Origin: a virus
Direction: 5' to 3' (one strand)
Virus record (IMG/VR): IMGVR_UViG_3300036770_006434
Location: 126,672 to 190,671 of that record
DNA: 64,000 nucleotides
In this document: positions 42,780 through 62,763 of the stretch, one piece after another
Layout of the letters: each line of letters starts with the position of its first letter
Position numbering within the stretch: position 1 is the stretch's first letter
Made by a program: the position numbers and the translations under genes
The notes under the pieces: model-generated
Databases searched by the model: none
What the model was told of the DNA's origin: nothing
The model's input: only the letters and a program-made list of their open reading frames with translations

Positions 42780-43235
42780 TTACTCGTTTTCCGCAATCTC
42801 CAGTTTGATTCCAAGGGAGGCAAGCAATTCCGGAGTCAATGCGTCAAGCCTGTCTCCGTTCAAATCCTTTGCGTAAATGCTCGAAAGCGTGCCGTCGGGC
42901 ATCCTGCGGGAATTCCCGCGGAATCCGTAGGCATCATTCCAGCAACGCCGCAAATGGTCGCGCTCTTCGCCTTCGGGCATCGCTTCGATTTCAGCGTGCT
43001 CTTTTCCGGCCTCTTCATCGCCAGCGGGAAAGAATTCGTCTTCACAAATGGAATAGGCGTCTTCCCACGTTTGCGCCCGGACAATTCCACCAACCATGCC
43101 GAAGTTGCCAAGCGTAGTTTGCCAGACGAACAGAGGGCCGAATCCATCATCATACGTGGGGATTTTATGGCCGGATTCCGTTTGAGCGGAAACAAGCGAT
43201 TGCGAGTCAGTAATCAGGGAGTTGTTTGTTTTCAC
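42780..43235 (-). CDS. Hypothetical protein
   Basis: 151 aa, GTG start MKTNN, acidic globular composition. Confidence 0.75.
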   Translation of the reverse strand: MKTNNSLITDSQSLVSAQTESGHKIPTYDDGFGPLFVWQTTLGNFGMVGGIVRAQTWEDAYSICEDEFFPAGDEEAGKEHAEIEAMPEGEERDHLRRCWNDAYGFRGNSRRMPDGTLSSIYAKDLNGDRLDALTPELLASLGIKLEIAENE

Positions 43236-43316
43236 GTTACGAGGTAAACGGTTTGTGCGGCGCGCCGCAAGCTTTATTTTGCGGGAAAATGCACGGTGTT
43301 TTGTAACGCGTTACAA

Positions 43317-43613
43317 TCAAACCGTTTCCCGCACGGGATAAAGGTCAGCAGACGAAAGCAGGCCGGCGGCCTTTTTCATCCGGAATTCCCGGACATATTG
43401 GCGGTCAATTTCCCGGAGTTCGGCATAAACTTCGGGCTTCACAACCGCCAACGTTGGCCAATCCCATCCCGTGCAAATGTCTCCGCGGCAACGGTCTGCG
43501 CGCGCTTCACGGTCAAGTTTCCGCAAAATTGCGTCATACCGGCGGCGGAGTGCTGCGCGCGCTTTGTCGAAAGGAGTAGGAGAAAGGACAGGGGAAACGG
43601 TGTTTGATTTCAT
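43317..43613 (-). CDS. Hypothetical protein
   Basis: 98 aa, MKSNT start. Confidence 0.7.
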   Translation of the reverse strand: MKSNTVSPVLSPTPFDKARAALRRRYDAILRKLDREARADRCRGDICTGWDWPTLAVVKPEVYAELREIDRQYVREFRMKKAAGLLSSADLYPVRETV

Positions 43614-43801
43614 GCGAGGAAATGAGAAGCGGGGACGGGTTTAATGGGGCGAATCGCGTTAACGTCTTGGACGAAAAACGTGCCATTGTATCCGACGCGC
43701 ATAACTTTGTAAAGCGCATGTTTAGAGAGACCGTTTTCGTTGGAAGGCGATTCCAAAGTTTTGCCAAGGTAATGGGCGAGGGATTCGTTTTTCGTTTTCA
43801 C
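43610..43801 (-). CDS. Hypothetical protein
   Basis: 63 aa, GTG start (MKTKNES) under TTGCGC-17-TTCTCT; 4-nt overlap with next gene. Confidence 0.6.
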   Translation of the reverse strand: MKTKNESLAHYLGKTLESPSNENGLSKHALYKVMRVGYNGTFFVQDVNAIRPIKPVPASHFLA

Positions 43802-43846
43802 AGAAAAGAGAGAAAGGGGATTTGCGGCCGGGCGCAAGGTTTATTT

Positions 43847-44206
43847 TCAGTAATTTTCGCTTTCCCGCTCTTCTTTTTCCCTCAATTCTTTCGCAAATCC
43901 TTCGTGCGCGGGCACATAGACGCCCCATGCCGTGCGCGGTTCATCCTCCTTTTTCCACGCCGTCAATCCGAACACTTTCAAGCAAGCGGACGCCACTGGA
44001 CCGGTAAAACCGGCGCAAATCGCCTTGCGAGGTTCCGCGCCGCGGGAAATGTCCTCAGCTACGTTTTCGGCCCGCTCGAAATAGATTCCAAGTGCATAAG
44101 GGTTGTAACCTTTGGTGCGGTTTCCTCCGGTCCGTTCACGGTGTGCGGAGTCGAAACGCGTCAATGCGGTTTGCAGTAAGGCAAGGGATTCGGTTTTCGT
44201 TTTCAT
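43847..44206 (-). CDS. Hypothetical protein
   Basis: 119 aa, MKTKTES start under TTGCGC-17-TTCTCT-8-ATG. Confidence 0.7.
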   Translation of the reverse strand: MKTKTESLALLQTALTRFDSAHRERTGGNRTKGYNPYALGIYFERAENVAEDISRGAEPRKAICAGFTGPVASACLKVFGLTAWKKEDEPRTAWGVYVPAHEGFAKELREKEERESENY

Positions 44207-44315
44207 CGGAAGGGAGAGAAAAGGGTTTTTGCCGGGGGCGCAAGGGAAAAGAAAAAGAATTTTCGCAAGGGGTTTACAGTTTCACCCCGTAAACCCGCGC
44301 AAGGTTTGTTTTCAT

Positions 44316-44803
44316 CGGTTGAAAGGTAAAGCGAGGGACAAACCTATTGTCAAGCGGTTTTCCGGAAAAACCCACTAAGTAGTTTCCACACCTAGGCAAG
44401 CTCCCGTTTTTGCGCTATACTGTCCGCACGTTAGAAAACGCCCGGCAAGGCTCCTTTTCTAATTCAAACCCCGGGGGTTGGGGAGAACCGGACGGCGTGT
44501 AAAAAAAGTGTAAAACAGTATTTTGGGCTTGCATGTCTCCCGGGCTTCGACTAGGGGCGGCAGCACTACGTAATACTACTACCTAGACAGGGAATCTTTT
44601 TTCGCGTAGGATAGGCGGCGAAGGCTATGGGGCTCCGCCCCGCAGTGAGGGTGGACAGGCTACGCGGATTCCTAGGGCCGCCGCGCAGCAAGGCCCATTT
44701 GGAAAATTTTACCACATCCCGGAAACTGTGTCAAGCATTTATTTTTCGGCTCTTTTTTGTGTGTGTTTGGAAACATTCTAACACGAAAGCCGCGCGGAGT
44801 CAA
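44316..44803. promoter_or_regulatory. Cluster of divergent and convergent sigma70-type promoters in a gene-free region
   Basis: Leftward: TTGACA (44353), TTGACA-17-TAAAAT (44734-44706), TTGACT-17-TAGAAT (44803-44775). Rightward: TAGGCA-17-TATACT (44393-44421), TAGACA-17-TAGGAT (44584-44612). Confidence 0.75.
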
Positions 44804-45428
44804 TAGCTAAAATGGTGAGGTGCGGAAACTACGTAGAAACCGGATTTGCGCAATTTTCCCGTTGACTTCCCGCTGCGCGCCGTTATTAGGCCGCCGCCTC
44901 GCGCTTCTGTAAGTAGTTGGAACACGTCAATGACTTACAAAAGTGTGGGCGATTTTTTACCTCTAATTCGCCCGAAAATTGACTTGAATTTATATCGTTG
45001 CGCCGCAATTACTTACAAAAGCGGAAAATGCCGGAAATGAGGTTTTCATCGGGGTCTGACACTCGCGGCGAATAATTAAATAAATAACGTAAGTCACTCC
45101 GACACTTGCTTGGCACGTTTCCTGCGCGTGACGCAAGTAGTTAGTCCCGCAAAGACTTACGCACTTCCCGAAGGGGCGCGCAATTCCGGCGGCGCGTTTG
45201 GAAAAGTGTTGACTTTTCCCCGGGGTTAGATAGAAGCGCGAAAATAATTGTTTTTCGGTCTTGACTTCCCGCCGGGAGTCGATAAAAGCGCCGCGCCTAC
45301 GTGTTTTTACCCCTTGACTACCGGCCGGAATCAGTTAGTGGCGCAAATTTTCCCGGATTTTCCCGCGTTTTCCCGGATTTTGCCGTTGACTTACGGGCGG
45401 GAGCAGGTAGGGGAGCGGGTCCGTGGTA

Positions 45429-45468
45429 GATTTTGGAAGATTTTGGAAGAAAATGGAAGATTTTGGAA
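45429..45468 (+). repeat. Tandem 10-bp repeat GATTTTGGAA, four copies
   Basis: gattttggaa gattttggaa gaaaatggaa gattttggaa. Confidence 0.85.
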
Positions 45469-45797
45469 CGTTCGTTTCAAACGGTCGTTTAGAGGCGAGA
45501 ACCAAAGGCTAACCCGCCCCAACCCATTTCGACACATTTCCCCCCAAAAAGCTCCTTTTGCCTGTCCTGTCTACTGTCCTTTCCTCCTATGGCGGGAGTC
45601 TTTTCCTCTAAGGTCTTTCCCCTTTGTTTCCTTTCCTCCCTTTTGCGGCCTTTCCCTTGCCGATCTAAGGTCTAAAGACTCCGGGACAGGTGAACCCCGG
45701 GACAAGGCGGCGGGAAGGGGGCGGGAAGGGTTTGCACATCCCCCCGGGGGGACAGTTTGCCGGCCGTTTCCATGCAGCGGGGGCGGGGGCGGGACGC

Positions 45798-45834
45798 AAA
45801 AAGCCCCGGAAACCGTGTGACAGGCTCCCGGGGC
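45798..45834 (-). terminator. Putative intrinsic terminator separating the gene array from the non-coding hub
   Basis: Minus strand GCCCCGG-(18 nt)-CCGGGGC-TTTTT, about 20 nt after the stop of 45857..46240. Confidence 0.65.
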
Positions 45835-45856
45835 GTAAAACTAGCGGACAGGCGGG

Positions 45857-46240
45857 TTAAACCAACCCCGCGCGCCTAGCCGCCGCCAAGGCTTCCGGCT
45901 GAGTTTCCAAGTCCCAACCGTTCCGCAAATATTCCCGCGCCCGGGCAAGGTCCGCAAACTCTTCAACCTCTGCAACCGTCGCGCGGATTTCCGCCAAGGG
46001 GGCCGGCTCCCGGTAATTCTTTTGACGCCGGAACGTTTCACCCCAACCAACCGCCAACCCGCCAACCCCGGGCAGGCTTTCCACTGTATAGCCGGCCAAT
46101 CGAAACGCAGATTCCGCGGACGCAAGGCACGTTTGCGGGGAGTCCGGAAACCATGCGGCAACCCCTTCCCATTTCCGGGATTTTGTCCGGCGGGCTAGGA
46201 GGTAGGGCGCAAGGGCGGCGGGGGAGGTGTTCGGATTCAT
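45857..46240 (-). CDS. Hypothetical protein (leaderless)
   Basis: MNPNTSPAA start; TTGACA-18-TACCTT-7-ATG. Confidence 0.75.
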   Translation of the reverse strand: MNPNTSPAALAPYLLARRTKSRKWEGVAAWFPDSPQTCLASAESAFRLAGYTVESLPGVGGLAVGWGETFRRQKNYREPAPLAEIRATVAEVEEFADLARAREYLRNGWDLETQPEALAAARRAGLV

Positions 46241-46273
46241 CGGCGGCAAGGTAAGGGCCAATTTTCCCCCGTG

Positions 46274-46750
46274 TCAAACGCTTTTTGCGTAAAACTGCAA
46301 CGCCCAAAGCGGGCGCGGCTTCGTGTCGTCCGTTTTCGTGATCCGGGCTAGGGAAACGGGCGGGCATCCCGGGAACGCAACCAGCGCGGCGGTTTTCCCA
46401 TTTTCGGGAATTTCACACGTTACCCCATGAAGGGCGCCCCATTGCGTTACCTGCTCCCGGGTCAAAAGGTGCGGAGACCCGGCCGGGCGCATCCCCGGCA
46501 CTTCGTCCGGGGTTTCGGGAGGATAGGGGAGCCAACCGGCAACCGGCGAGCGTTCATCGGTCCGGCCGGTCAAGTCAACCCGTTTGCCCGAAGGCGTCGC
46601 GCAATAATGGCAACCCGTTTCCGGGTCAACTGCAACCCGGGCGAGCTGGCGGGAACCGTCGGCGCGGACTAGGACTAGGAGAAGCCCGGCCGCGTTCGGA
46701 ATGTCCGCGCGGGCGCGAAGGGCGGGAGCGGGGGAAGTGTTTTTATTCAT
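46274..46750 (-). CDS. Hypothetical protein (leaderless)
   Basis: MNKNTSPAP start; TTGTGC-17-CAACCT-8-ATG; palindrome at 46799. Confidence 0.75.
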   Translation of the reverse strand: MNKNTSPAPALRARADIPNAAGLLLVLVRADGSRQLARVAVDPETGCHYCATPSGKRVDLTGRTDERSPVAGWLPYPPETPDEVPGMRPAGSPHLLTREQVTQWGALHGVTCEIPENGKTAALVAFPGCPPVSLARITKTDDTKPRPLWALQFYAKSV

Positions 46751-46814
46751 CGGGGCCAAGGTTGCGCCCTTTCCATCCCGGGCACAAGTTTTTTCTCCTA
46801 CGTAGTTCTACGTA

Positions 46815-46985
46815 TTACCCAAGGGCCAACCCGGAGCCGATAATGGCGAACCCAAGCGCCAACCCAAGCAGGGCCGCGCAGACATAGGCCGCACCCCGGG
46901 ACCGGCGCCAGACAGGGGGCCGGCGGGGCGGGACCGTCACCGGGACATAACAGAGGACGCGGGCAGGGCGTGGAAAGTGTGTCAT
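46815..46985 (-). CDS. Small membrane protein
   Basis: 56 aa, C-terminal TM AAYVCAALLGLALGFAIIGSGLALG. Confidence 0.6.
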   Translation of the reverse strand: MTHFPRPARVLCYVPVTVPPRRPPVWRRSRGAAYVCAALLGLALGFAIIGSGLALG

Positions 46986-46989
46986 GGCG

Positions 46990-47205
46990 CTAGGAAAGTT
47001 CAGCACGACGGCGGGCAATGGCTTCGTTGAACGTTTCCCCCGGGCGCGCCCAAATTAGGCCGGTTCCGCGTTGCTCACGGCAACCCCATGAACGTGCGTA
47101 AGCCGTATCGCGCCCGAAACTCTCGAAAAAGTGGTAATGCCAGCAAATTGCGCCGCGTTTGGTTTCGCGGATGACGGCTTGGCGGTGATAATATATCGAA
47201 GACAT
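46990..47205 (-). CDS. Hypothetical protein
   Basis: 71 aa MSSIYYHRQ..., tightly packed between neighbours. Confidence 0.65.
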   Translation of the reverse strand: MSSIYYHRQAVIRETKRGAICWHYHFFESFGRDTAYARSWGCREQRGTGLIWARPGETFNEAIARRRAELS

Positions 47206-47236
47206 TTTTACAAGTTTAGAGGTTGCGGGGTGCGAC

Positions 47237-47569
47237 TCAGGCCGTAAGGAGCAGGCATTGCACCGGGTCGCCGCCGTTGGCGCGGTCACAATCGGCGAGA
47301 AACGCGGACAGACCGGCGCGGAAATCGGCAGGCACTTCCTCAATGCTCGACACGAAGGGCGCCACCGGGGCCGGGACGAAATCGGCGGGGAGCAGGTCCG
47401 CCGGGTCAAGCGGAGCCGGGGCCGGGGACTGTTTGGCAACCCAAACGCGCGGCATGACGGGAGCGGACGGGGCGGGGAAAATCCCGGCGGCGGCAAGGGC
47501 GGCACAAGACGCGGCGCGGCGGGAGAGAACACGGGAGCGAATCAGGGCGAGACGGGTGGCGGATTTCAT
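47237..47569 (-). CDS. Hypothetical protein
   Basis: 110 aa MKSAT..., Ala/Pro-rich. Confidence 0.6.
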   Translation of the reverse strand: MKSATRLALIRSRVLSRRAASCAALAAAGIFPAPSAPVMPRVWVAKQSPAPAPLDPADLLPADFVPAPVAPFVSSIEEVPADFRAGLSAFLADCDRANGGDPVQCLLLTA

Positions 47570-47710
47570 CGTATAACGGGAACAGACTAGCGGTTTTCGG
47601 TTTTTGGCGTCCGGGGTGACGTTGTGCCTTCCCAGACTTGAACGGGGCAGAGGTTGTGGGCGGGTTGGCGGGAAGTCAAGCGGTTTTCCTGACTATTTTC
47701 CTACGTAGTT

Positions 47711-47995
47711 TTACGTAGTCGGCGAACTCTTTTTGATCCACTTCCGCACCGTCATATCCCAAAGGAAGCCGGCCGCAAGGCGCTCCGCTTCCCGGACACT
47801 TTGGCAGTGCGGGTTGCCGTTCCCGCCGCGTTTCGCTAGGTATTCCGCCCCGCGTTTCGTGCGGAACGGGCCAACCGCACAAGTGAATTGCGGGCATGTT
47901 TCGGCGGTAGGTTCGCCAGTGTGACGGAATACGGTGCGGGCGTTGCCTTTTACGCCTACCCAAAGGCGGCGCGTTTGTTTCGTTTCTTTTTTCAT
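47711..47995 (-). CDS. Hypothetical protein (leaderless)
   Basis: GTGACA-17-GATACT-8-ATG; palindrome at 48044; 94 aa basic. Confidence 0.75.
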   Translation of the reverse strand: MKKETKQTRRLWVGVKGNARTVFRHTGEPTAETCPQFTCAVGPFRTKRGAEYLAKRGGNGNPHCQSVREAERLAAGFLWDMTVRKWIKKSSPTT

Positions 47996-48056
47996 CGGAG
48001 CACAGTATCGGAAAAATTCCCGCGCTTGTCACGCTTTTTCTCCTAGGGTCTATTCC

Positions 48057-48134
48057 CTAGTCATCCCGCAAATCGTTTTCAGTAGCCAAAAGGATGCCCA
48101 AAACAAGGCAAATCAGGAGAACGGCGGCAGCCAT
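48057..48134 (-). CDS. 25-aa hydrophobic peptide
   Basis: MAAAVLLICLVLGILLATENDLRDD; TAG stop is the distal arm of palindrome 48044. Confidence 0.5.
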   Translation of the reverse strand: MAAAVLLICLVLGILLATENDLRDD

Positions 48135-48155
48135 AAATTGCGAGGGTTTAAGGGT

Positions 48156-48830
48156 TTACGCGTTAGCATAGGCGGGGGACTTTAGGAAAGCAATCAGCGC
48201 GAGAGCTTGCGCCCGGGTTGCATCAACCTCGATCCGCACGCTGTCCCCGCCGCGAACGTCAAGCGACGCAAGGGCATAGCGCCCGCCCTCTTCCCCGTGC
48301 TTCGGATTCAACAGGCAAAAGGATTTGCGCGTGCCGCCCCGATGGTGATCCTTTTCAATCTCGCGCCCGCAGGCGGCGGCAATCTCCCCGGCGGTCTTTT
48401 CGTGAGCGTTCGCCGCGTTTGTGTCGCGCTCAATTTGCGCGTTCGCCATAGCAAACACCGTTTCCGCTTCCGGGAGCAGGCGCCGGGCAATGTCCGCGGC
48501 AATAATGGCGGGCGCTTTTGTTTCCGCTGCGGTGATTTCCGGGTCTTTCACACCGCCATAGTTCGGGCTCTCAGAGTAGAGCCGCACATAGTTCCCGGCG
48601 TTGCGCGGGCGATTGAACTGAACCCGGACCCGGCCCTTGGCTGCCCATCCCCCGGAAGAACCGGCGAGGAACAGTTGCAGACCGTCGGAACGGGTCAAAT
48701 ACTGGTTGCCGTTGCGTTCGGTGGCGTCGGGGTGAACCGGGCGGGCGTTCCAAGTGCCGGGCAGAGCGGCGGCGATTTCAGCGGCGAGAGCCGCAAGGGA
48801 AACGGGGGCGGGTGTGTTTGTGTTATTCAT
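48156..48830 (-). CDS. Hypothetical protein (leaderless)
   Basis: 224 aa; TTGACA (48867) with CATACT-8-ATG. Confidence 0.8.
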   Translation of the reverse strand: MNNTNTPAPVSLAALAAEIAAALPGTWNARPVHPDATERNGNQYLTRSDGLQLFLAGSSGGWAAKGRVRVQFNRPRNAGNYVRLYSESPNYGGVKDPEITAAETKAPAIIAADIARRLLPEAETVFAMANAQIERDTNAANAHEKTAGEIAAACGREIEKDHHRGGTRKSFCLLNPKHGEEGGRYALASLDVRGGDSVRIEVDATRAQALALIAFLKSPAYANA

Positions 48831-48909
48831 CGGCGGACAGTATGCGCGCGGGTTGCGGGTATGTCAACAGGAGAAATGGGTTTTGCGTCAATATGAGGAA
48901 AACACCCTA

Positions 48910-49299
48910 TCAAAAACGCAATTCCTTCATTAAAGCAATTTCCTTTACGGTAAAAAACGCCTTAGCGGCGCGGTTTAAGGGAACCGTTTTACCGGCCTCT
49001 TCAATCAGTTTTTCGTCAACCGTTTCCCCCTCGTCCTCCATTTTTGCGACATATTGCGGCACAGATTGTGCCCCGGTGCAATGGCAACACATTTGCCCCA
49101 TAAAATCGGCGGCGGATCGGCAGGACCGCATAAACCCGGAGAACTCCGCGCCGTTTTGGCGGCGAAACACTCCGCGCCATGTGGCGGACTTGCCCGGTTC
49201 AATTGTCAAAACTAGGGAAAGCCCGGTCTCGGCGAGAAAATATGCAACGTCCGACTCAGGGTGCGGGGTGACAGTGTCTAATATGTTGGAATTTTTCAT
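48910..49299 (-). CDS. Hypothetical protein (leaderless)
   Basis: 129 aa; TTCCCT-17-CATACT-8-ATG; palindrome at 49348. Confidence 0.75.
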   Translation of the reverse strand: MKNSNILDTVTPHPESDVAYFLAETGLSLVLTIEPGKSATWRGVFRRQNGAEFSGFMRSCRSAADFMGQMCCHCTGAQSVPQYVAKMEDEGETVDEKLIEEAGKTVPLNRAAKAFFTVKEIALMKELRF

Positions 49300-49365
49300 C
49301 GGCGGACAGTATGGGCAAAAGCCGGGGGAAAGGGAAGAAAAATGTGCTAGGGTGTATTCCCTAGG

Positions 49366-49728
49366 TCAAACCGTTTTGCGTAGCCCTACGCCGAAGAATT
49401 GCACGAATTTGCGCAACTCCTCACCATAAAGGGAGCTGGCGGGCGATACCTGAAACCCCGGGCCGGTTTTCCGCGCGCAACAGATGCAACCGAATTTTCC
49501 GTTGTCCGCGTCGTTTTCCAATTCCATGCCGCGCAACAGTTTATGCGCAACCGATGCGGGGAACGTCTCACGGGCGGCAACGGGCAAACCGTTTTTGCCA
49601 ATCCATCCGGCGTCAACTACCCACTCGGCGGGCGCTCCGGGTTCATCGGCAATCATGCCGGAAAAACAGATGCGGACAGGCACGCGGGAAGTCGCGAAAC
49701 GGGCGGCGGTTTTGTGTTTTGATTTCAT
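49366..49728 (-). CDS. Hypothetical protein (leaderless)
   Basis: 120 aa; TTGTTT-17-CATAAT-8-ATG; palindrome at 49777. Confidence 0.75.
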   Translation of the reverse strand: MKSKHKTAARFATSRVPVRICFSGMIADEPGAPAEWVVDAGWIGKNGLPVAARETFPASVAHKLLRGMELENDADNGKFGCICCARKTGPGFQVSPASSLYGEELRKFVQFFGVGLRKTV

Positions 49729-49789
49729 CGGGCGGCATTATGCGAGCGCGCGAACGGAAAAACAAGGTTTATTTTCTAGGGTCTTTCCC

Positions 49790-50749: not shown

Positions 50750-50803
50750 CGGCTAAAAGATAGCAGAGGACCGGGAAGGAAAGCAATACGTAGTTATACG
50801 TAG

Positions 50804-51703: not shown

Positions 51704-51716
51704 CGGTCAAAACGTT

Positions 51717-54836: not shown

Positions 54837-54899
54837 CGGGAACACAGTGTAACAGGTTCCGGGCGGTTTTCAATAGGGTTTATTCCCTATACTACCCCG

Positions 54900-55487: not shown

Positions 55488-55537
55488 CGGGGAAAAGAAT
55501 AGCAGAGAAGGGTCAGTATTTCAATAGGGTGTTTCCC

Positions 55538-56008: not shown

Positions 56009-56057
56009 GGGGAAGAGAGTAACAGATTCTCTGTATTTGTCCAGTAGGGTGTTTCCC

Positions 56058-56390
56058 TCAATTCGTGGTAATCTCAAATTCCCCGGCCATCCCCCGGTCA
56101 AATAGCCCCTGCAAAGCAGAGCACAATCGGCTAACGGTTAAACGGCTTTCAATTGCGGCCAAAACCGTGTAAGTGTCACCGTCTTTTTCCATGCTGCCCC
56201 AAGACAGGGACAAGCCGCGAAAGGCGGAACTTGAATCCCCTATCCCGTGCGTCGTGCAATCCTCAAATTCCGTGCGAAGCTGGGTGATAAACCGATGGCG
56301 GTTGGTAGGGCAAACGAGACGCGGGAGAGACGGCACGGCTTCCGCGTCTTCAGCAAGGGAACGGGTGAATTTGACGGTGTGAGTATTCAT
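56058..56390 (-). CDS. Hypothetical protein (leaderless)
   Basis: 110 aa; TAGACC-17-TATCCT-7-ATG; TGA stop inside palindrome 56045. Confidence 0.75.
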   Translation of the reverse strand: MNTHTVKFTRSLAEDAEAVPSLPRLVCPTNRHRFITQLRTEFEDCTTHGIGDSSSAFRGLSLSWGSMEKDGDTYTVLAAIESRLTVSRLCSALQGLFDRGMAGEFEITTN

Positions 56391-56447
56391 CGGGAACAGG
56401 ATAGCAGGTTGGAGTGCTTGGGTCTATAGGGAGTTCACCCCATTTCT

Positions 56448-56633
56448 TCACATAATAATATGCCCCGGATTCGCGGCCTTATACGCGGCAAGGTATTTCG
56501 TGCGGGCTTTATCCAAGTCGGATTTGACCCTCTTGTAATCAGCGGAAAAAACGCTGGTGTTCATCCATTTTGCGTGGTGGGCCTCATATTCGCGGACGGC
56601 GATTTCCAAGTTCTTTTTAACATTTGTATTCAT
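56448..56633 (-). CDS. Small helical hypothetical protein (leaderless)
   Basis: 61 aa; TTGAAA-17-TATACT-8-ATG. Confidence 0.75.
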   Translation of the reverse strand: MNTNVKKNLEIAVREYEAHHAKWMNTSVFSADYKRVKSDLDKARTKYLAAYKAANPGHIIM

Positions 56634-56843
56634 CGGCGGACAGTATACCTGAAATCGGATGGGATTTCAATAGGGAGTTCACCCTATTTTTCCTCAAATC
56701 ACGCGATACGCCGCGAAGGGATAACTTTTTCTCGGCGCTCGGAGCGGGTTTGGTGTTCGAGTGAGCGCGGCTCACTTCATTGGTGTTTTCATTGCGCTTG
56801 CAGTATGCCAGAGGTTGAGTCCAAAGTCTATAGGGTGAATCCC

Positions 56844-57149
56844 TTATTCCGTCTCTTCGCGCTCAGGACAAACCAGTTCCCCGGAGTCAATGAACTCCGC
56901 AACAAACCGTCGCATGGAAGCGCCGGAGAGGTGAAGGAACGCTGGATTTGGCCCCGTTTTCCACGGGAAGGGAGTCATCGGCTTACCTCTGAGGTTTTCG
57001 CAGTCGTCAAAACTCGGCGCGTCTTTTGCATAGGTATAAAGGGCAATCACCTTATTGTCAGAGTTTCGGTGATGCACCATAACCTCGCTCTCCCCGTCGG
57101 TATAGGTGTATTCGGTGAAGGCGCGGGCTTTGGTTGGTGTTTTCATCAT
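56844..57149 (-). CDS. Hypothetical protein (leaderless)
   Basis: About 101 aa from MMKTP; TAA stop inside palindrome 56831. Confidence 0.75.
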   Translation of the reverse strand: MMKTPTKARAFTEYTYTDGESEVMVHHRNSDNKVIALYTYAKDAPSFDDCENLRGKPMTPFPWKTGPNPAFLHLSGASMRRFVAEFIDSGELVCPEREETE

Positions 57150-57208
57150 GCCGAGAGGATAGCACAGAAAGGGGGTGCGGCGCAATAGGGTGTATTCCTC
57201 ATTACCCC

Positions 57209-57586
57209 TCAACCCCTACTCATGGCCCTATAATCCGCCCAAGTCTCGAATCTGTCATGCACGTGGTAAATCATCCCGCCACCCCGGGAATCCGTAGTCG
57301 CCGCCAGATTGCCGCCGGCCATCGGGCCGCACATGCCTTCGCGCTCCACATAAGGGACAAGCGCGTGATAGTTGCCGCCCCGGTGTTCGGGAAGAAAAAT
57401 AAGGTTCGCATCCACTTCCGAAACCTTGAAGTGTCCCCTTGGGTTGGGGACATAAAGCGTGTGGTTCTTAGCGGAAACCCCGCCGTTTGTGCAATCGCAT
57501 TCCGCACCGTCGTTCCAGTTGGCATAACGCGTGCGATAGACGTGAAACGGCAACAGCCGGGTGTCGGGGGAGAGAATGATTTTCAT
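57209..57586 (-). CDS. Conserved phage hypothetical protein (leaderless)
   Basis: DCTNGGVS...GPMAGGN...DSR...VHDRFET motif; TTGCGC-17-CATACT-9-ATG. Confidence 0.8.
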   Translation of the reverse strand: MKIILSPDTRLLPFHVYRTRYANWNDGAECDCTNGGVSAKNHTLYVPNPRGHFKVSEVDANLIFLPEHRGGNYHALVPYVEREGMCGPMAGGNLAATTDSRGGGMIYHVHDRFETWADYRAMSRG

Positions 57587-57651
57587 AGCGGCGACAGTAT
57601 GGCAGACCAAAGGGCGCTGCGCAATAGGGTCTTCACCCCATTTTCCCGCTC

Positions 57652-58137
57652 TTATAGCACAATCAGCGCGCCATTTATCACCGCGGCAAACCCGCGCGAA
57701 CCGGGGTAGCTGTGTCCGTAAACGGGAAACCAGTAGAGGGGCAGAGGTAAATTGCGCGCCTTTAACTCGGCAGTCATTTCCGCGATGCCTTCGCGATAGA
57801 TGGAGGATGACGAGGATAGCGCAGAAACACAGAACAGACACAGATCGTGCAGGGTATCAAACGCGTCACGGTCCCACCCCTCGACATACGAGGTGTCATC
57901 CGGGCGCATATAGGCGAATTCTAGCGGGCCGCGCTCACGATAGAGCCCTTCGCCATACAGGCCGCTACCCACGACCTTAAAGCACCGGGAGGGGGCATTA
58001 TAGCAGGTCATCCCCTCGCGGATAAGCGTTTTGTCAGGCGGGACATAGTTGGCGAGCTGGGTAAAGTCAAAGGTCCCGGCGTCAGACGCGGGAGGTAGAG
58101 AGGTGAGGGGAGAGTGGAGGATTGCGTGCGTTTGCAT
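57652..58137 (-). CDS. Hypothetical protein
   Basis: 161 aa; operonic with upstream genes. Confidence 0.7.
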   Translation of the reverse strand: MQTHAILHSPLTSLPPASDAGTFDFTQLANYVPPDKTLIREGMTCYNAPSRCFKVVGSGLYGEGLYRERGPLEFAYMRPDDTSYVEGWDRDAFDTLHDLCLFCVSALSSSSSIYREGIAEMTAELKARNLPLPLYWFPVYGHSYPGSRGFAAVINGALIVL

Positions 58138-58143
58138 AACGAA

Positions 58144-58425
58144 TCACCGCTTGGCTACCTCGGCGCCCGCAACAAGGGCACGCAGGATGTTGGCAGAGCT
58201 TGCCACGGCGTCACGATAGTCTGCATCTATCTTGCTGCCGGTAAGCGCGCGGGTGTTATCGGCTTGCGCTTTCACCTCTTTGGCAAGCTGAAACAGTTCG
58301 CTACTGACGTGCTCATTCCCCGTGCGCTCAAACGCGCGTGCCAAATCGGAGATTTGGAAGGCAATGCTTTTCAGCGCATCGGAATGGGCGAACATTGAGT
58401 CAAGCCAAGTGGTTTCGGTTTTCAT
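58144..58425 (-). CDS. Helical hypothetical protein
   Basis: 93 aa from MKTETT. Confidence 0.7.
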   Translation of the reverse strand: MKTETTWLDSMFAHSDALKSIAFQISDLARAFERTGNEHVSSELFQLAKEVKAQADNTRALTGSKIDADYRDAVASSANILRALVAGAEVAKR

Positions 58426-58430
58426 AGGGT

Positions 58431-58820
58431 TCACAGTTTCCAAATTTCCCGGTAGTCCTGCAAAACGAGCTTCCGGCAATCCGGCGGCAGGGACGCGAAC
58501 GGAATCCGACGGCCAAGGTGGCATTTGCGGCCCATCGCGGGGGCAAATCCCCAGTCATTCACATCTGCGTGACGGTTCGGGGTTTCACCCCACATTCCGA
58601 AGCCTTGCGGGCAAAACGGGTGAGTGCTCATGGCGCGGTATTGAGCAAAGGCGCGACGGTCGCCGGGAGTGCGGACAGTGCCCGCTTTGCCGGTGAAGCA
58701 GACGGTGTAACGGTCAACGGTTTCGCCGCCGTTATCATAACAGCGAACCCAACGCGGGATGCCGCCGGGCATCAGACGTTCGGCGCGAGAGGGGGAAGAG
58801 GAGGGTGTTTGGGCATTCAT
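58431..58820 (-). CDS. Conserved phage hypothetical protein
   Basis: YDNGGETVDRYTV...HPFCPQGFG...HLGRRIPFASLPPDC motif. Confidence 0.8.
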   Translation of the reverse strand: MNAQTPSSSPSRAERLMPGGIPRWVRCYDNGGETVDRYTVCFTGKAGTVRTPGDRRAFAQYRAMSTHPFCPQGFGMWGETPNRHADVNDWGFAPAMGRKCHLGRRIPFASLPPDCRKLVLQDYREIWKL

Positions 58821-58826
58821 AGGTGG

Positions 58827-59015
58827 TTAGGTCAAGCGGAACAGTCCATCGCGGGCAATGCGTTCGTGCTGCTCAATGTCGGCGGCACTCAGATCGTATG
58901 TGTGTCCATCCTTGGCAAAAATCCAGCCGCCGATTGCGTGCCAGCCGTGCGGTTCAAGGTGGTTGGCAGCCTTGAGCCAACGGGAGTATGATTGCTGTTC
59001 GGTTTCGGGTCTCAT
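58827..59015 (-). CDS. Small hypothetical protein
   Basis: 62 aa; TTGCCA promoter with palindrome 59056. Confidence 0.7.
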   Translation of the reverse strand: MRPETEQQSYSRWLKAANHLEPHGWHAIGGWIFAKDGHTYDLSAADIEQHERIARDGLFRLT

Positions 59016-59245
59016 GTTGGGCGCTACTCTAGCAGATCAAAGGGTGGGGTGGCAATAGGGTGTTTGCCCTATACTGGCGCGTCATACCCAGCCTCCCAAA
59101 ACCCAAAAGCCGCCCCCGCTCCCCGGCAAGGTGTTCAGTCTTGACAGGAGCGGAGACGGCTTAGGCGATGAAAACGTGACGCGTCCGGCGTCACTGCGGG
59201 CCACGGTTTGCGGGAAACTGCGGCGGAAATGGGTGAGCTAGGGCG

Positions 59246-59560
59246 TCACGCGACTACCTGCAAAGCCTCGGCGCGGGCGTGGAGAGTGGCGAGGTCAAGG
59301 CTGGTCTGCCCGTTGTCGTCCTGTTCTGCGGCGGCCAAATCGTCGTCATTCCACTCGGAAACGGTGGCGAGAGTGTCGCCGCGCAGGATGTTGCGGCCCC
59401 ATACCTCAACCTCCGCTTCCGTTTCCCCAGTAAGGAGTCCGCGATGACCGGCGTGATTTGCGACGTTGGAAAGGAGGTGGATCAATTCCTCTTCCGTCAC
59501 CCCATTCGGGATATACGTCACGGTGAGGGCGAGGGTCAGGGTGATGGGTTCGTTTTTCAT
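59246..59560 (-). CDS. Hypothetical protein (leaderless)
   Basis: 104 aa; TTGACA-17-TACCTT-10-ATG; no palindrome. Confidence 0.75.
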   Translation of the reverse strand: MKNEPITLTLALTVTYIPNGVTEEELIHLLSNVANHAGHRGLLTGETEAEVEVWGRNILRGDTLATVSEWNDDDLAAAEQDDNGQTSLDLATLHARAEALQVVA

Positions 59561-59607
59561 TGCGGGAGGGAAGGTAGCAGGTCGTTTCTATGGTGTCAAG
59601 AGCGTTT

Positions 59608-59808
59608 TCAGTATTTCGCCCGTATCTGAGACACACGGGTATCCGTGCCTCTCAAACGCGCGGTTGGCCTTGAATCGTCAATCGTGCCGTCGTTATTGAA
59701 TGAGGCGCGAATTTCCTCGGGATTCCCGCTAGCCGCAAACCGTTGGCCGTTCTTCAGGATAACCGTCCATAGGGGACGACCGAATTTATCGGCTTTCTGT
59801 GTTTTCAT
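59608..59808 (-). CDS. Small hypothetical protein (leaderless)
   Basis: 66 aa from MKTQK; TTGACA-18-TACCTT-8-ATG. Confidence 0.7.
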   Translation of the reverse strand: MKTQKADKFGRPLWTVILKNGQRFAASGNPEEIRASFNNDGTIDDSRPTARLRGTDTRVSQIRAKY

Positions 59809-59849
59809 GTGAGGGTAAGGTAGCGGGAGCCCCGCTTCTGTGTCAAGCC

Positions 59850-60137
59850 TCAAACCGTCCAGTTCATGCACCCAAGCAGGTAAATCTTGGCCTCGTTCCC
59901 ATCCGTGTTCATCAAATGGATCGCGCCGTCAATCAGTTTGGGCTCCATATTGTCGGCAACTGTGAAACGCTCTTCCCCGTAAGCGGTCTCAAACGAAAGG
60001 AGAGCGTCATCGTATTCCTCCCCTTCGGCGTAAATCTGAGGGAAAACAAGCGATGTTTCGTCCACGAAAAGGGCCGTTGCGCGTTCAATCTGTTTGATAA
60101 CGGACTCAAACGGGATGGTGGTAACGGAAGCATTCAT
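59850..60137 (-). CDS. Hypothetical protein
   Basis: 95 aa acidic; TTGACA/TACCTT promoter with short leader. Confidence 0.75.
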   Translation of the reverse strand: MNASVTTIPFESVIKQIERATALFVDETSLVFPQIYAEGEEYDDALLSFETAYGEERFTVADNMEPKLIDGAIHLMNTDGNEAKIYLLGCMNWTV

Positions 60138-60215
60138 GTGTTTTGGGTGTTATCGGTTTACGTTGGCTAAGGTAGCAGACGCCCCATCTATGTCAAGCCC
60201 GGAATCCGGCGCTCT

Positions 60216-60485
60216 TCAAGTGGCATCCGCGACAAACACCGTCAAATGCACATTGCGCCCGGTCGTTTCGTTGCGTCCAGTGCGGTAGCCCACGAAAGCG
60301 GAGAACTCCCCGGCGGTGCCGTCTTGGGTCCAAGACCCCAACGTGCAAGTGCGGCAGTAACCTCGGCGACCAAAGAGTTTGCGCGCTTCACGGGTGGCGA
60401 AGGTCTCGGCGGCTTCCTGCATGGAGTGGGCGCGGACAGAGCGGAAACCGGAACAGAGGTAGCGGGTGAGAGGATTAGTGTTCAT
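60216..60485 (-). CDS. Hypothetical protein (leaderless)
   Basis: 89 aa from MNTNP; CATACT-9-ATG; palindrome 60525. Confidence 0.75.
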   Translation of the reverse strand: MNTNPLTRYLCSGFRSVRAHSMQEAAETFATREARKLFGRRGYCRTCTLGSWTQDGTAGEFSAFVGYRTGRNETTGRNVHLTVFVADAT

Positions 60486-60537
60486 TGCGTCGCCAGTATG
60501 ACAGAGGATAGTGGGGAAATACAATAGGGTCTATCCC

Positions 60538-60810
60538 CTATTCGGCGACCCGCGCCGCCTTCATGGCCTCTTGCCACTCGTTTTCGCTCCCATAATAGCC
60601 ATCAAGCCGAGCATCCGCGCGAACGCCGCGCACGGTGCCCATACGCATGGGGTTCTCCATACGGACATGCCACCAGCACTTTATGCGCGCCAGAAGCCAC
60701 CAGCGGTAGACGCCAAGCAGGCGGACGCCGCCGTCCCAATAGACGCCGATATGGGTATGGACTGCCCAGCGCCGGGAGGGGGAGTAGGTGAGAGGAGGCA
60801 TGTTCTTCAT
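60538..60810 (-). CDS. Hypothetical protein (leaderless)
   Basis: 90 aa Trp-rich; TTGACG-17-TACGTT-9-ATG; TAG stop inside palindrome 60525. Confidence 0.7.
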   Translation of the reverse strand: MKNMPPLTYSPSRRWAVHTHIGVYWDGGVRLLGVYRWWLLARIKCWWHVRMENPMRMGTVRGVRADARLDGYYGSENEWQEAMKAARVAE

Positions 60811-60862
60811 GGCACCGGCAACGTAGCACGGTTTCGGGTTGCCGTCAAGTAGGGTCTATCCC

Positions 60863-61087
60863 CTATTTGCGCTTTTCCAGTGCCGCCCTCAGCCTCGCGT
60901 TCTCCGCTGCGAGTCCCGCGATGTATTCGGCCACCTCTGTTTCCAGCATAACGGATTGTGGATAGGGGGCGTAACCGTCTCTGCCGCCAAACCGGGTGGT
61001 TGTCCAGCACAAAAGGGTTCTGCCCCCTACGGTAGACGTTTCAAGGCGGAACGTTATGGGGTGGGGATGAACGAGCAGGGCACGCAT
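60863..61087 (-). CDS. Hypothetical protein
   Basis: 74 aa downstream of the tRNA; TAG stop inside palindrome 60850. Confidence 0.7.
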   Translation of the reverse strand: MRALLVHPHPITFRLETSTVGGRTLLCWTTTRFGGRDGYAPYPQSVMLETEVAEYIAGLAAENARLRAALEKRK

Positions 61088-61103
61088 GAGTAAAATTGTA
61101 AAA

Positions 61104-61206
61104 TGGTAGTCCCAACAGGATTTGAACCTGTAACGCCCTCAAATCTAGAGGCGACCTTTCGGCTGGAGGGTATAAGCCTCGTGTTTTACCGTTAAACTAT
61201 GGGACC
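61104..61206 (-). tRNA. tRNA-Ile (anticodon UAU), 103 nt, with oversized two-hairpin variable region
   Basis: Acceptor GGTCCCA/TGGGACT, D-arm GTTT-AACGGTA-AAAC, anticodon arm CGAGG-CTTATAC-CCTCC, 33-nt variable region, T-arm ACAGG-TTCAAAT-CCTGT, A73 plus encoded CCA. Confidence 0.85.
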
Positions 61207-61280
61207 AAAAGTGAAAGGGAAGACGGCGCGGCCAGTGTGTCAACTCCCCCGGCGCGCGCAATCTGCCCCGCTACCCCATC

Positions 61281-61703
61281 TCAGAACGTATAATCCCGGA
61301 TCGCCTCAATCTGCGCGAACAGGACGGCGATAGCCTCCTCGTCCTCCGCCCCGGCCCGCATCTTCATAAGTTCCTCGTCCATCTCGCTGACCAATTCGTC
61401 CCGTGCTTCCTCGGCGGCGGTGCAGCTGTAGTAGTTCCCGTCAATCCCAATCAGCGTATCTCCCAGACTATCCATATAATCATTCATCCCGCATCGGAAT
61501 GCGGTTGGATCACACTCGGCTAGAACGCGACTCGGGGACATATTGGCGAACAGACCGCCCGCGGCAAATGGATAGGTTTCGTCCAGCATTTCGGAGTAAA
61601 GCTGCTCGGCGTCAACTGACGGGACGTTGTCCTCAATGTGGTTCAACAAACGGTCAATCGCGGCGGCGCGTTGGTCGGGAGTGAGGGAGGTATCGGGATT
61701 CAT
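61281..61703 (-). CDS. Conserved phage hypothetical protein, paralog B
   Basis: MLDETY...MSPSRVLAECDPTAFRCG shared with 53924..54397. Confidence 0.8.
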   Translation of the reverse strand: MNPDTSLTPDQRAAAIDRLLNHIEDNVPSVDAEQLYSEMLDETYPFAAGGLFANMSPSRVLAECDPTAFRCGMNDYMDSLGDTLIGIDGNYYSCTAAEEARDELVSEMDEELMKMRAGAEDEEAIAVLFAQIEAIRDYTF

Positions 61704-61765
61704 GGGAATGGGTATCGTGCGTTTGGGTTGCGTCCTATCTCTAGGTTACGCCCATACTATACTGC

Positions 61766-62080
61766 CTAGCGCCGCCGCTTGTCAAGGATAGATTCCCAAA
61801 ACATGCGGTCCGCGATGGCGTCAACCCCATCAAAGAGCCGCGCCAGTTCGCCGTCCTTGGGGCCGTTCTCCCTGTTACCTGTCACTTCTGCGGCTACCCC
61901 ATCCAGCGCCGCCAACACTGCCTCGCGACACTTGTCGGTTAGCGCCTCGCGCTGTTCGTCAAACGTGGGCTGCCCGTCCTTGGCGTCAAACCCGAGGGAG
62001 CGCAGAAAAGCGGCGTCCCGGTCCATTGCTTCCCCGACCGTGAGGCCGTCGGCGCGGCGGGTGTTTCGTGTGATGTTCAT
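61766..62080 (-). CDS. Hypothetical protein
   Basis: 104 aa; TTGACA-17-GATACT promoter with about 25-nt leader. Confidence 0.75.
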   Translation of the reverse strand: MNITRNTRRADGLTVGEAMDRDAAFLRSLGFDAKDGQPTFDEQREALTDKCREAVLAALDGVAAEVTGNRENGPKDGELARLFDGVDAIADRMFWESILDKRRR

Positions 62081-62130
62081 GGCTTTGAATAGGTGTCAGC
62101 TTATCGGCGCAGAGTATCGGTTACAGTCGG

Positions 62131-62316
62131 TCACTTGTCAAGCTCCGATTCCCAGTCTTCCGCGATCCGCGCGCAAAGACGGATAAGCCGACGGGCACAT
62201 TTCTGTTCTTCATCCGAGAGGTGACCTAGATTGTTGACGCCGGACAGGTCGTCTTCGCACTCCCGGAGAGCGGCCAACGTGTTTTCAAACCGGCAGTAGG
62301 ACATATTCATAGGCAT
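62131..62316 (-). CDS. Conserved small phage protein
   Basis: NMSYCRFENTLAALREC motif. Confidence 0.75.
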   Translation of the reverse strand: MPMNMSYCRFENTLAALRECEDDLSGVNNLGHLSDEEQKCARRLIRLCARIAEDWESELDK

Positions 62317-62337
62317 GACGGTAAATGGGTAGGTCTG

Positions 62338-62679
62338 TCAGAACTGACTCGCCGCCTCCTTCTCGTCCTCCGCGCTCCAGTAAACCCCGTCCGCAGCGAC
62401 AAGGACGGGCGCATTGAACTCGATCATGCCCGGCTGGGCCTTGAAGAAGGCGAGGATTTGGGCGAGCTGCCAGTCAAGGTTCTGTGCCCGGGAGGATACG
62501 GCCCGAAATCCGATAGTAAAGGCTGTTTCAAGGCAAAAATCAAGAATGTCAAAGTCGCCACCCATCTTGCCGGCGTTTGCGTCCATAACGAAGACGCGGA
62601 AGGCGTGCATTGCTTGGATGGAATGGTCTTTGGTGTCGAAACGGACGGCGGCGCCGTCAGTGGTAGCGTAATTGGACAT
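62338..62679 (-). CDS. Hypothetical protein
   Basis: 113 aa; TTGACG-17-TACTGT promoter; palindrome 62744. Confidence 0.75.
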   Translation of the reverse strand: MSNYATTDGAAVRFDTKDHSIQAMHAFRVFVMDANAGKMGGDFDILDFCLETAFTIGFRAVSSRAQNLDWQLAQILAFFKAQPGMIEFNAPVLVAADGVYWSAEDEKEAASQF

Positions 62680-62763
62680 GGTAGGTTAGAATGGGTTGTT
62701 TCAGATCGCCGTTACAGTAGCATATCCCCGAGTATCCGTCAAGTAGGGTAAAAACCCTATCCG

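Follow-up and report, generated by a model that had tools for sequence, protein, structure and literature searches.

A dense array of predicted leaderless gene units with a shared promoter and inverted-repeat cassette in a large uncultivated phage

Organization of the locus

The DNA analyzed is the terminal 64 kb of one phage contig of 190,671 bp (IMG/VR record IMGVR_UViG_3300036770_006434, positions 126,672 to 190,671), referred to here as the window; coordinates are those of the window unless the genome is named. The subject of this report is an array of small leftward genes in this window, each preceded by a short cassette in which a σ70-like promoter lies almost directly against the start codon. 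The virus record has direct terminal repeats and is classed in IMG/VR as 100% complete. The terminal repeat is an 88-bp assembly overlap, and the genome map therefore closes on itself. The GC content is 53%. Because antisense frames confuse raw longest-frame calling, genes were called with a codon log-odds model trained on 51 long open reading frames (ORFs) of the genome, which gave 303 genes. Nearly all genes between 42.8 and 63.8 kb are small and leftward.

The core array occupies 45857-60865 on the minus strand. A looser scan for the architecture identified 26 credible units with start codons from 46240 to 60810, all leftward, together with a few promoter-less genes coupled to their upstream neighbor (for example, 58431-58820, 58144-58425 and 57652-58137, also on the minus strand). 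A first-pass annotation of this DNA had described about 30 such units spread over 42780-62759. The array itself is borne out, at a count nearer 26, and its regular part is confined to 45.86-60.87 kb. Of the flanks included in the earlier span, 42.8-45.8 kb falls outside the regular array, with only weak units and, past a strong terminator, 1.5 kb that is poor in genes; 60.9-63.1 kb has consensus promoters with leaders of 13-50 nt that lack a Shine-Dalgarno (SD) sequence. In total the array is larger than first described: palindrome-bearing units of the leaderless type extend across the contig junction into genome 0.4-8.6 kb, and leaderless promoters are found more sparsely on the same strand to ~66 kb of the genome.

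Promoter-to-ATG geometry

The cassette is ~53 nt long and fits a typical intergenic gap of 47-66 nt. In the direction of transcription it comprises the stop codon of the upstream gene, a 16-bp inverted repeat, the -35 box, 16-18 bp, the -10 box, a discriminator and the ATG, which is followed by A-rich, G-poor codons (M-K/N-T/N/S...). The spacing between the end of the -10 box and the ATG (k) is 6 nt in one unit, 7 nt in six, 8 nt in 12, 9 nt in five and 10 nt in two. This agrees with the range of 6-10 nt and the mode of 8 nt given in the first-pass annotation for leftward genes with their own promoter, an arrangement that is enriched in the comparisons below; the three examples quoted there (52070, 56633 and 51028) read exactly as stated.

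A blind regular-expression search of the minus strand of the region for a -10-like hexamer, k nucleotides and ATG returned 6, 11 and 7 matches at k = 7, 8 and 9, and ~1-2 matches at other spacings; the plus strand of the region gave no signal. When gene starts were set by codon score only, blind to promoters, 12 of 43 region genes had a strict σ70 position weight matrix (PWM) match with its -10 box 5-11 nt from the start, compared with a mean of 0.28 and a maximum of 2 in shuffles and with 0-3 in other 7-nt offset classes. Elsewhere, strict leaderless promoters precede 15 of 130 genes at genome 1-67 kb and 2 of 119 genes in the middle and late part. An independent promoter tool predicted 19 promoters versus 6.9 ± 2.4 in shuffles. 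Scanning the whole genome with a generic E. coli σ70 matrix gave 91 minus-strand matches versus ~27 in Markov shuffles, concentrated at genome 0-60 kb and 170-190 kb.

A -35-like box is present at 16-18 bp in 22 of the 26 units, with at most two at any other spacing tested (8-29), and TGn precedes the -10 box in 16 units. These two features indicate real promoter architectures rather than stray hexamers. The discriminator is G+C-rich, 7-9 nt long and mostly ends in CG, with CG directly before the ATG in 16 of the 26 units. Such a junction would fit a start with a pyrimidine at -1 and a purine at +1, on either this G or the first base of the ATG. The usual gap between a -10 box and +1 is 6 nt, and the same 6-nt spacing to the ATG is expected from promoter geometry when transcription starts exactly on the A. 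In E. coli rrnB P1, a C-rich discriminator of 8 nt places the start 9 nt from the -10 box.

Individual units of the array

The units differ in the placement of the repeat relative to the -35 box: it lies 0-1 nt upstream in 14 units and 11-12 nt upstream, or one helical turn, in six. All are on the minus strand and are named below by the position of their ATG, in the direction of transcription within each group.

The first group begins with unit 60810 (60538-60865; 90 aa), where TAGGGGATAGACCCTA is separated by 1 nt from TTGACG-17-(TGn)TACGTT-9-ATG. In unit 60485 (60216-60540; 89 aa), the same palindrome, TAGGGGATAGACCCTA, abuts TTGTAT-18-(TGn)CATACT-9-ATG, and its TAG is the stop codon of the upstream gene. 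Unit 59015 (58827-59071; 62 aa) has TAGGGCAAACACCCTA abutting TTGCCA-18-(TGn)TAGAGT-10-ATG. Two units share the -35 box TTGCGC: 57586 (57209-57640; 125 aa), with TGGGGTGAAGACCCTA abutting TTGCGC-17-(TGn)CATACT-9-ATG, and 57149 (56844-57201; 101 aa), with TGAGGAATACACCCTA abutting TTGCGC-18-(TGn)TATCCT-6-ATG(ATG). They are followed by 56633 (56448-56686; 61 aa; TAGGGTGAACTCCCTA abutting TTGAAA-17-TATACT-8-ATG) and 56390 (56058-56442; 110 aa; TGGGGTGAACTCCCTA abutting TAGACC-17-(TGn)TATCCT-7-ATG). The palindrome TGAGGGAAACACCCTA serves both unit 56008 (55538-56060; 156 aa), at a gap of 1 nt from TGGACA-16-(TGn)TACTCT-7-ATG, and unit 55487 (54900-55540; 195 aa), where it abuts TTGAAA-17-(TGn)TATTCT-8-ATG. 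Further along, TAGGGAATAAACCCTA abuts TTGAAA-16-(TGn)TACACT-9-ATG in unit 54836 (54462-54889; 124 aa), TAAGGAAAACACCCTA abuts TTCCAT-17-(TGn)TACAGT-8-ATG in unit 54397 (53924-54450; 157 aa), and a degenerate palindrome abuts TAGACA-17-(TGn)CACACT-8-ATG in unit 53385 (52132-53438; 417 aa). The group is completed by unit 52070 (51717-52124; 117 aa; TGAGGGGAATCCCCTA, gap of 1 nt, TTGACA-17-CATAAT-8-ATG) and unit 50749 (50276-50802; 157 aa; TACGTATAACTACGTA abutting TTGCTT-18-(TGn)TATCTT-7-ATG).

Among the units with the repeat one turn further upstream, 53672 (53436-53735; 78 aa) has TAGGGTAAACACCCTA 12 nt from TTCCCT-16-(TGn)TATGAT-7-ATG. Three units carry TAGGGAATAGACCCTA ahead of a GTGACA box: 51474 (51091-51539; 127 aa; gap of 11 nt, GTGACA-17-(TGn)CATCCT-9-ATG), 51028 (50804-51093; 74 aa; gap of 12 nt, GTGACA-17-CATACT-8-ATG) and 47995 (47711-48059; 94 aa; gap of 11 nt, GTGACA-17-GATACT-8-ATG). 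The other two, both with gaps of 11 nt, are 49728 (49366-49792; 120 aa; TAGGGGAAAGACCCTA, TTGTTT-17-CATAAT-8-ATG) and 49299 (48910-49363; 129 aa; TAGGGAATACACCCTA, TTCCCT-17-CATACT-8-ATG).

Six promoters stand without the repeat in either register, and four of these have a perfect TTGACA: units 59808 (59608-59846; 66 aa; TTGACA-18-TACCTT-8-ATG), 59560 (59246-59599; 104 aa; TTGACA-17-(TGn)TACCTT-10-ATG), 48830 (48156-48867; 224 aa; TTGACA-17-CATACT-8-ATG) and the last unit of the array, 46240 (45857-46277; 127 aa; TTGACA-18-TACCTT-7-ATG). The fifth, 51703 (51530-51740; 57 aa; TTGAAA-18-AACGTT-7-ATG), has a weak -10 box and no palindrome. In unit 50080 (49790-50117; 96 aa; TAGGAA-17-TAAACT-8-ATG), the -35 box is poor and a palindrome lies 26 nt upstream of it.

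Upstream is a segment (59850-63131, minus strand) of genes with consensus TTGACA or TTGACT promoters and leaders of 13-50 nt, which start at 60137, 61703, 62080, 62679 and 63102; a palindrome at 62744-62759 precedes the promoter of 62679. At the opposite border of the region, an outlying copy (41924-41939) lies 4 nt before a plus-strand promoter, TTGACA-16-AAAAAT.

The inverted repeat

A palindrome had been reported upstream of most units, and it is indeed present in 20 of the 26, a count that admits a left arm of T(A/G)(A/G)GG. The form TAGGG-N6-CCCTA has 18 exact copies in the genome versus none in shuffles, 14 of them at 41.9-62.7 kb of the window and four at genome 0.4-8.1 kb; TACGT-N6-ACGTA has three exact genome copies. 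The right arm, CCCTA, is nearly invariant, and the left arm varies between TAG-, TGA- and TAA-GG. Often the upstream gene ends at the stop triplet of this left arm, or at a different one inside or adjacent to the repeat. The A-rich core of 6 nt is asymmetric, with all copies in the same orientation relative to transcription, and A-tracts recur near -44 to -41 and -56 to -52. Repeat-bearing promoters have weaker -35 boxes in the window (p = 0.03).

Two other descriptions of the cassette were considered and rejected. The 17-mer TAGGGAATAGACCCTAG, which occurs in three copies (47988-48059, 51021-51093 and 51506-51539, minus strand), has TAG in all three frames and would stop translation of any upstream insert. 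A universal three-frame stop is not a property of the cassette, since only the TAGGGAATAGACCCTAG family and one other unit have it (4 of 26, versus 8% in shuffles). Nor are the cassettes full-length repeats resembling miniature inverted-repeat transposable elements: only identical blocks of 14-33 nt are common within the genome, at the palindrome and at the -10 box, discriminator and ATG. The cassettes are thus motif-constrained elements and not copies of a mobile repeat.

Related loci and gene turnover

Contigs carrying homologues of the 417-aa protein (52132-53385) were used as relatives. Their GC contents range from 47 to 66%, and at least six independent sources, metagenomes or assemblies, are represented. 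The same cassette is present in the closest, L007 (85% identity), and in the more distant L008 (56% identity, 49% GC), which has mostly TACGTA-N4-TACGTA repeats and the start context ...CCCCG-ATG-AAA-AC. Full promoters at k = 6-10 exceed the background estimated from other spacings in each locus: 22 versus 0.4 in the window, 18 versus 0.6 in L007, 14 versus 2.1 in L008, and 6 versus 1.0 in both L009 and L013. The TAGGG-type repeat was found in L007, L008, L013, L014 and L015, and not in L009, which has 66% GC. As the relatives share it, the cassette design is a trait of the phage clade.

In L009 (a contig of GCA_040384045.1), promoters of the leaderless type are seen, for example, at 9380-9420 and 12040-12076, with a different putative operator, whose perfect inverted repeat, of the type TGACAGACG-N5-CGTCTGTCA, extends over the -35 box. 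Upstream there is a further conserved motif, GTCTAATAC...CCGTCTATCA.

L007 is colinear with 61.1-50.3 kb of the window, and the genes in common are 68-88% identical. Gene content differs considerably: the present genome contains no homologue for 20 of the 31 genes of L007 and for 37 of the 44 genes of L008. The boundaries of the colinear high-scoring segment pairs (HSPs) fall at the cassettes. Of 25 HSP ends, 23 are in the cassette zone, which covers 18.5% of the locus (p = 3e-15), and 18 are within -4 to +12 of an ATG or no more than 12 nt from a stop codon. Three HSPs consist of the cassette alone. In one of them, the 57-nt cassette of unit 59015 is 98% identical in L007, where it drives an unrelated gene and both flanking genes are unrelated. 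The proposal that genes are gained and lost as whole units is supported at the sequence level by these comparisons of related contigs, in which the apparent junctions lie at cassettes.

An N-terminal stretch resembling M-(K/N)-x-N-T-S-P-A-P is common to the otherwise unrelated proteins that start at 46240, 46750, 48830, 50080 and 50749. It suggests that the conserved cassette joint can reach ~10 codons into the gene.

Transcript ends

Sites resembling terminators are no more frequent than chance would give (31 versus 32.1 expected), and there are none between units. The only strong terminator-like hairpin of the array, at 45803-45834 on the minus strand, has a 12-bp stem with nine GC pairs followed by a T-run and lies 23 nt past the stop codon of the last unit. 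It is the probable 3' end of transcripts that, with no terminators between units, would be nested. The description of the units as self-contained therefore applies to initiation and does not extend to termination.

Role of the repeat

We consider the repeat most likely to be an operator. It is a conserved sequence with inverted symmetry, it keeps a fixed distance and helical phase to the promoter, and it is retained in five related loci. A different possibility is that it works as an RNA or DNA structure in the manner of the promoter-early stem-loop (PeSL) elements of T4-type phages, as an attenuating or terminating hairpin or a processing site. The position of the repeat at or directly after the upstream stop codon is indeed like that of PeSL stem-loops, and the existence of two arm families with equal 5-6-5 geometry here and in L008 resembles covariation. 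Nevertheless, the stem is only 5 bp long and has no T-run after it, there is no excess of terminator-like sites, and the left-arm variants TGAGG, TAAGG and TGGGG are uncompensated in the invariant right arm. The sequence of the arms is conserved across relatives of 47-59% GC, the repeat keeps a fixed register with the -35 box, and its core is both conserved and asymmetric. A structural role is thus unlikely, although it fares best among the alternatives.

The repeat could also be a roadblock, at which a bound repressor stops elongating polymerase, and so insulates or silences the units, without affecting adjacent initiation, as at the stoperators of phage L5. In favor of this are the number of copies in the short intergenic gaps, their uniform orientation with respect to transcription and the lack of intrinsic terminators between units, and the Cluster O mycobacteriophages carry more than 30 short dyad repeats per genome for which dimer binding is predicted (PMC4351075). 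The fixed helical register with the -35 box and the tendency of repeat-bearing promoters to weaker -35 boxes point instead to an interaction with initiating polymerase, and lysogeny genes of the repressor or integrase type were not seen in those parts of the genome that were examined. We regard a roadblock as distinctly unlikely.

Translation signals

None of the leaderless units has an anti-SD duplex of -6 kcal/mol or lower upstream of its start, in keeping with the earlier statement that these units lack an SD sequence. The same applies more widely than had been supposed: anti-SD duplex energies are at the level of shuffled sequences for the leaderless units, for other genes of the end region and for middle and late genes. 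Some head genes had been credited with clear SD sequences, and AGGAG does precede the start at 22323; no gene class, however, is enriched for such sites. The leadered genes have SD-less leaders, in which only A/C-rich 5-mers are enriched. The first 36 nt of the predicted mRNAs are almost free of structure, with a mean minimum free energy of -1.04 kcal/mol compared with -7.58 kcal/mol in internal windows (p = 3e-13). In codons 2-6, A makes up 51% and G 7% of the bases, and all unit proteins begin M-K/N/R/M....

Given that SD-like pairing is at the shuffled level throughout the phage, the host is probably not SD-led, and leaderless starts are more likely to be its ordinary habit than a phage device. 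It had been suggested that leaderless mRNAs may stay translated when SD-led host translation is shut down; the phage could bring this about, for instance, by a shift in the balance of initiation factors. A precedent is the Thermus phage phiYS40, for which a review (PMC3594737) reports mostly leaderless middle and late mRNAs with initiation factor IF2 raised and IF3 lowered, and the very unstructured, G-poor 5' ends and uniform CG-ATG-AAA context of the array look optimized. By analogy, the array mRNAs may have a translational advantage like that of phiYS40. The notion of an escape from SD-led shut-down is nevertheless not supported: with SD at chance in all classes, late genes included, there is no SD-led class to discriminate against. 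Moreover, such a switch would harm the phage's own late genes, which have leaders, none of the 40 array proteins was recognized as resembling a translation factor, and the same design in relatives of 47-66% GC fits a habit shared by a host lineage. A takeover of this kind is accordingly improbable.

Finally, the -10-like box might be an SD-independent translation or RNA signal in long polycistronic early transcripts rather than a promoter, which the seemingly SD-free host, where other upstream signals could exist, and the lack of terminators between genes would allow, but this is scarcely credible in view of the -35-like box that 22 of 26 units have at 16-18 bp, with almost none at other spacings, the TGn in 16 units and the roughly threefold minus-strand excess of generic E. 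coli σ70 matches.

Array proteins and host

None of 40 array proteins matches Pfam. Ten PHROG families are matched, all annotated as of unknown function, and there are only two paralogous pairs. A role of the array genes in host takeover or anti-defence is plausible by position only. The 195-aa protein of unit 55487 has top-listed matches of 36-38% identity in jumbo phages of Caulobacter and Brevundimonas, and matches Acinetobacter, Bacillus and other phages at less than 60% identity; its homologues in the Caulobacter phages are inside the terminal repeats. The only widely conserved protein of the array is that of 417 aa, with 48 metagenomic homologues at 39-85% identity and at least 40 invariant residues in its N-terminal half. 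Its AlphaFold model is confident (predicted local distance difference test score of 81). The model has no PDB match at E ≤ 0.001, and an Atlas search was uninformative.

The phage is not T4-like. Its large terminase (28640-30535, minus strand) is only distantly related to those of cultured phages, namely Bacillus and Clostridium phage terminases, and a megablast search of the region against 50,697 records of cultured phages gave no match. An Atlas search with an RfaE-II-like gene led to a nearest cluster labelled Verrucomicrobiota from two members only, which gives a weak hint of a host in that phylum.

The array is 100% identical in the assemblies JGI 3300034073, JGI 3300034072 and SRR10854513 and 99.4% identical in ERZ4201046. 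The phage thus recurs unchanged in several samples.

Proposed mechanism

Taken together, we think it probable that the locus is an early, hyper-variable accessory region built from ~53-nt cassettes that combine leaderless expression, operator control and cassette-jointed gene replacement. What the sequences show directly is how the motifs are arranged, that this arrangement is enriched and conserved in relatives, and that gene turnover is bounded by cassettes; where transcription starts, how the mRNAs are translated, what regulates the units and when they are expressed are inferred. Host RNA polymerase with a σ70-type factor would initiate on the A of the ATG or on the G that precedes it, leaving a leader of 0-3 nt. 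The mRNA would then have an unstructured 5' end and be translated without an SD sequence, presumably by a leaderless 70S-type route. This route is probably the general initiation mode of the host, as the phage appears to use no SD elsewhere. The inverted repeat, most likely the operator of a putative dimeric DNA-binding regulator, would lie in register with the promoter, with its centre near -43.5 or one helical turn further upstream, and would gate most units together. The weak -35 boxes at repeat-bearing promoters are a hint that the regulator activates. The transcripts would form a nested set that ends at the one strong terminator, at 45.8 kb. Over evolution, the common cassettes would serve as joints for whole-gene replacement, as do PeSLs in T4-type phages. 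As the leaderless units carry full host-type -35 and -10 promoters, they are probably expressed early.

Several observations weigh against parts of this proposal. If the gap between the -10 box and +1 is the usual 6 nt, units with a spacing of 8 nt would have a leader of 2 nt, so that the mRNAs would not be truly leaderless, and leaderless translation in E. coli is lowered even by short 5' extensions. The boxes of units 51703 and 50080 are weak, as are the -35 boxes of 49299, 53672 and 54397. The association between the palindrome and weaker -35 boxes, with p = 0.03 in the window, has the same direction and p = 0.17 in the relatives. Searches of the genome for HTH_3, HTH_17 and Sigma70_r4_2 domains gave no match, leaving no candidate regulator; the repeat might be bound by a host protein or by an unannotated small protein of the phage. 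Read-through could supply much of the expression of downstream genes, whose ATGs would then be internal. Recombination is deduced from one close and several distant relatives, as the array is invariant among strains: of four other assemblies, three are 100% identical and one is 99.4% identical. Lastly, scans of contigs for a host carrying the 417-aa family or the TnpB-like protein were both empty.

Other features of the genome

Downstream of the array terminator, ~1.5 kb (44274-45850) is without a convincing gene. It has two near-consensus leftward promoters with TGn, TTGACA-17-TAAAAT ending at 44706 and TTGACT-17-TAGAAT ending at 44775, and may hold a non-coding RNA or an origin region.

A tRNA gene within the array at 61107-61206 (minus strand), just upstream of the gene starting at 61087, scores 58.5 bits with Rfam (E = 5e-10) and was missed by ARAGORN with default settings. 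The Rfam alignment gives the anticodon UAU (Ile) with a 29-nt insertion in the variable region, and the intron mode of ARAGORN gives instead His(atg) with a 16-nt intron. Outside the window, ARAGORN found a cluster of nine tRNAs at genome 45.9-51.7 kb on the minus strand (Arg, two Leu, Met, Gln, Val, Trp, Tyr and Gly).

The heptamer GTGTAAC has 35 genome copies versus ~12 expected. Of these, 21 lie no more than 80 nt upstream of a start on the same strand, concentrated in the structural module (genome 112-167 kb); examples in the window precede the minus-strand starts 24089, 28576 and 39900. GTGTAAC is a candidate late-promoter element. A Pfam search of the ORF at 32616-33536 found no sigma domain.

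Comparison with known systems

Among published systems, the nearest is that of the PeSL cassettes in T4-type phages, present at ~50 per genome, each with a σ70-like promoter, an A/T-rich tract and a stem-loop (PMC2839356, PMC4122927). These cassettes precede ORFans in the hyperplastic regions, and genes are shuffled through them as modules (Arbiol et al. 2010, PMC2839356; Comeau et al. 2014, PMC4122927); recombination between PeSL cassettes also forms encapsidated mini-circles. The modular view is not new, and the concept of plug-in cassettes has thus already been published for those phages. The likeness is extensive. Both systems have dozens of cassettes comprising an upstream stop codon, an A-rich tract, a σ70-like early promoter and a small dyad, directly before small ORFans in variable regions (here, 26 units in 15 kb), with indel and replacement junctions between related phages at the cassettes. 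The differences lie at the two ends of the element. A PeSL ends in an SD sequence and a leader, whereas the -10 box here is 6-10 nt from the ATG with no SD. The PeSL stem-loop is a stable G/C terminating hairpin at a variable place in the promoter, in contrast to the sequence-conserved 5-6-5 repeat upstream of the -35 box, which has a fixed register and no terminator signature. With neither the SD nor a terminator-grade hairpin, the array works like PeSLs but falls outside the PeSL family.

In Deinococcus-Thermus, ~30% of ORFs are leaderless and have an adjacent -10 box (PMC12340547), and leaderless genes also occur in M. tuberculosis (PMC3898074). The design is alike in having a TANNNT-type -10 box a few nucleotides before the start, no SD, and a strengthening -35 box at 17 bp. 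Those are, however, chromosomal host genes with mapped starts, compared with predicted starts in a phage array here, and the modal spacing of 8 nt slightly exceeds the expected 6 nt. As cited in PMC3594737 and PMC12340547, phiYS40 is similarly a large phage in which most transcripts of one temporal class are leaderless (Sevostyanova et al. 2007); there the class is middle and late, whereas the present units are probably early and lie in a variable accessory region. In the Cluster O mycobacteriophages, a few SigA-like promoters are predicted to be leaderless (PMC4351075), but most of the dyad repeats are neither beside promoters nor at rearrangement junctions. In the present array, the repeats of 20 of 26 units are in promoter register and the cassettes coincide with junctions. 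At 16 bp, the repeats are also far shorter than the attC sites of integrons. A dense, uniform, operator-bearing array of leaderless cassettes across a clade is therefore a new combination of known kinds rather than a new system.

Implications

The promoter-to-ATG rule corrected several gene starts (for example, 54397, 54836, 57149, 57586 and 60485), and gene callers that rely on SD sequences will misplace starts in such phages. The array would rank among the most regular natural examples of leaderless expression, with 26 units in 15 kb and ~45 genome-wide built on one template. Its natural variants in -35 strength, in spacing from 6 to 10 nt and in presence or absence of the operator lend themselves to testing leaderless mRNA function, and in hosts with efficient translation of leaderless mRNAs the cassette could be used as a compact expression part. 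The array also takes the idea of cassette-driven modular shuffling beyond T4-type phages and beyond SD-dependent translation.

More tentatively, it is possible that in this clade of uncultivated large phages a single module of operator, promoter and leaderless start is both a co-regulated expression switch and a homologous-recombination joint, in a host lineage without SD initiation. If true, the cassettes would be a leaderless, operator-gated counterpart of PeSLs, with a putative operator-binding factor timing ~30 accessory genes at once.

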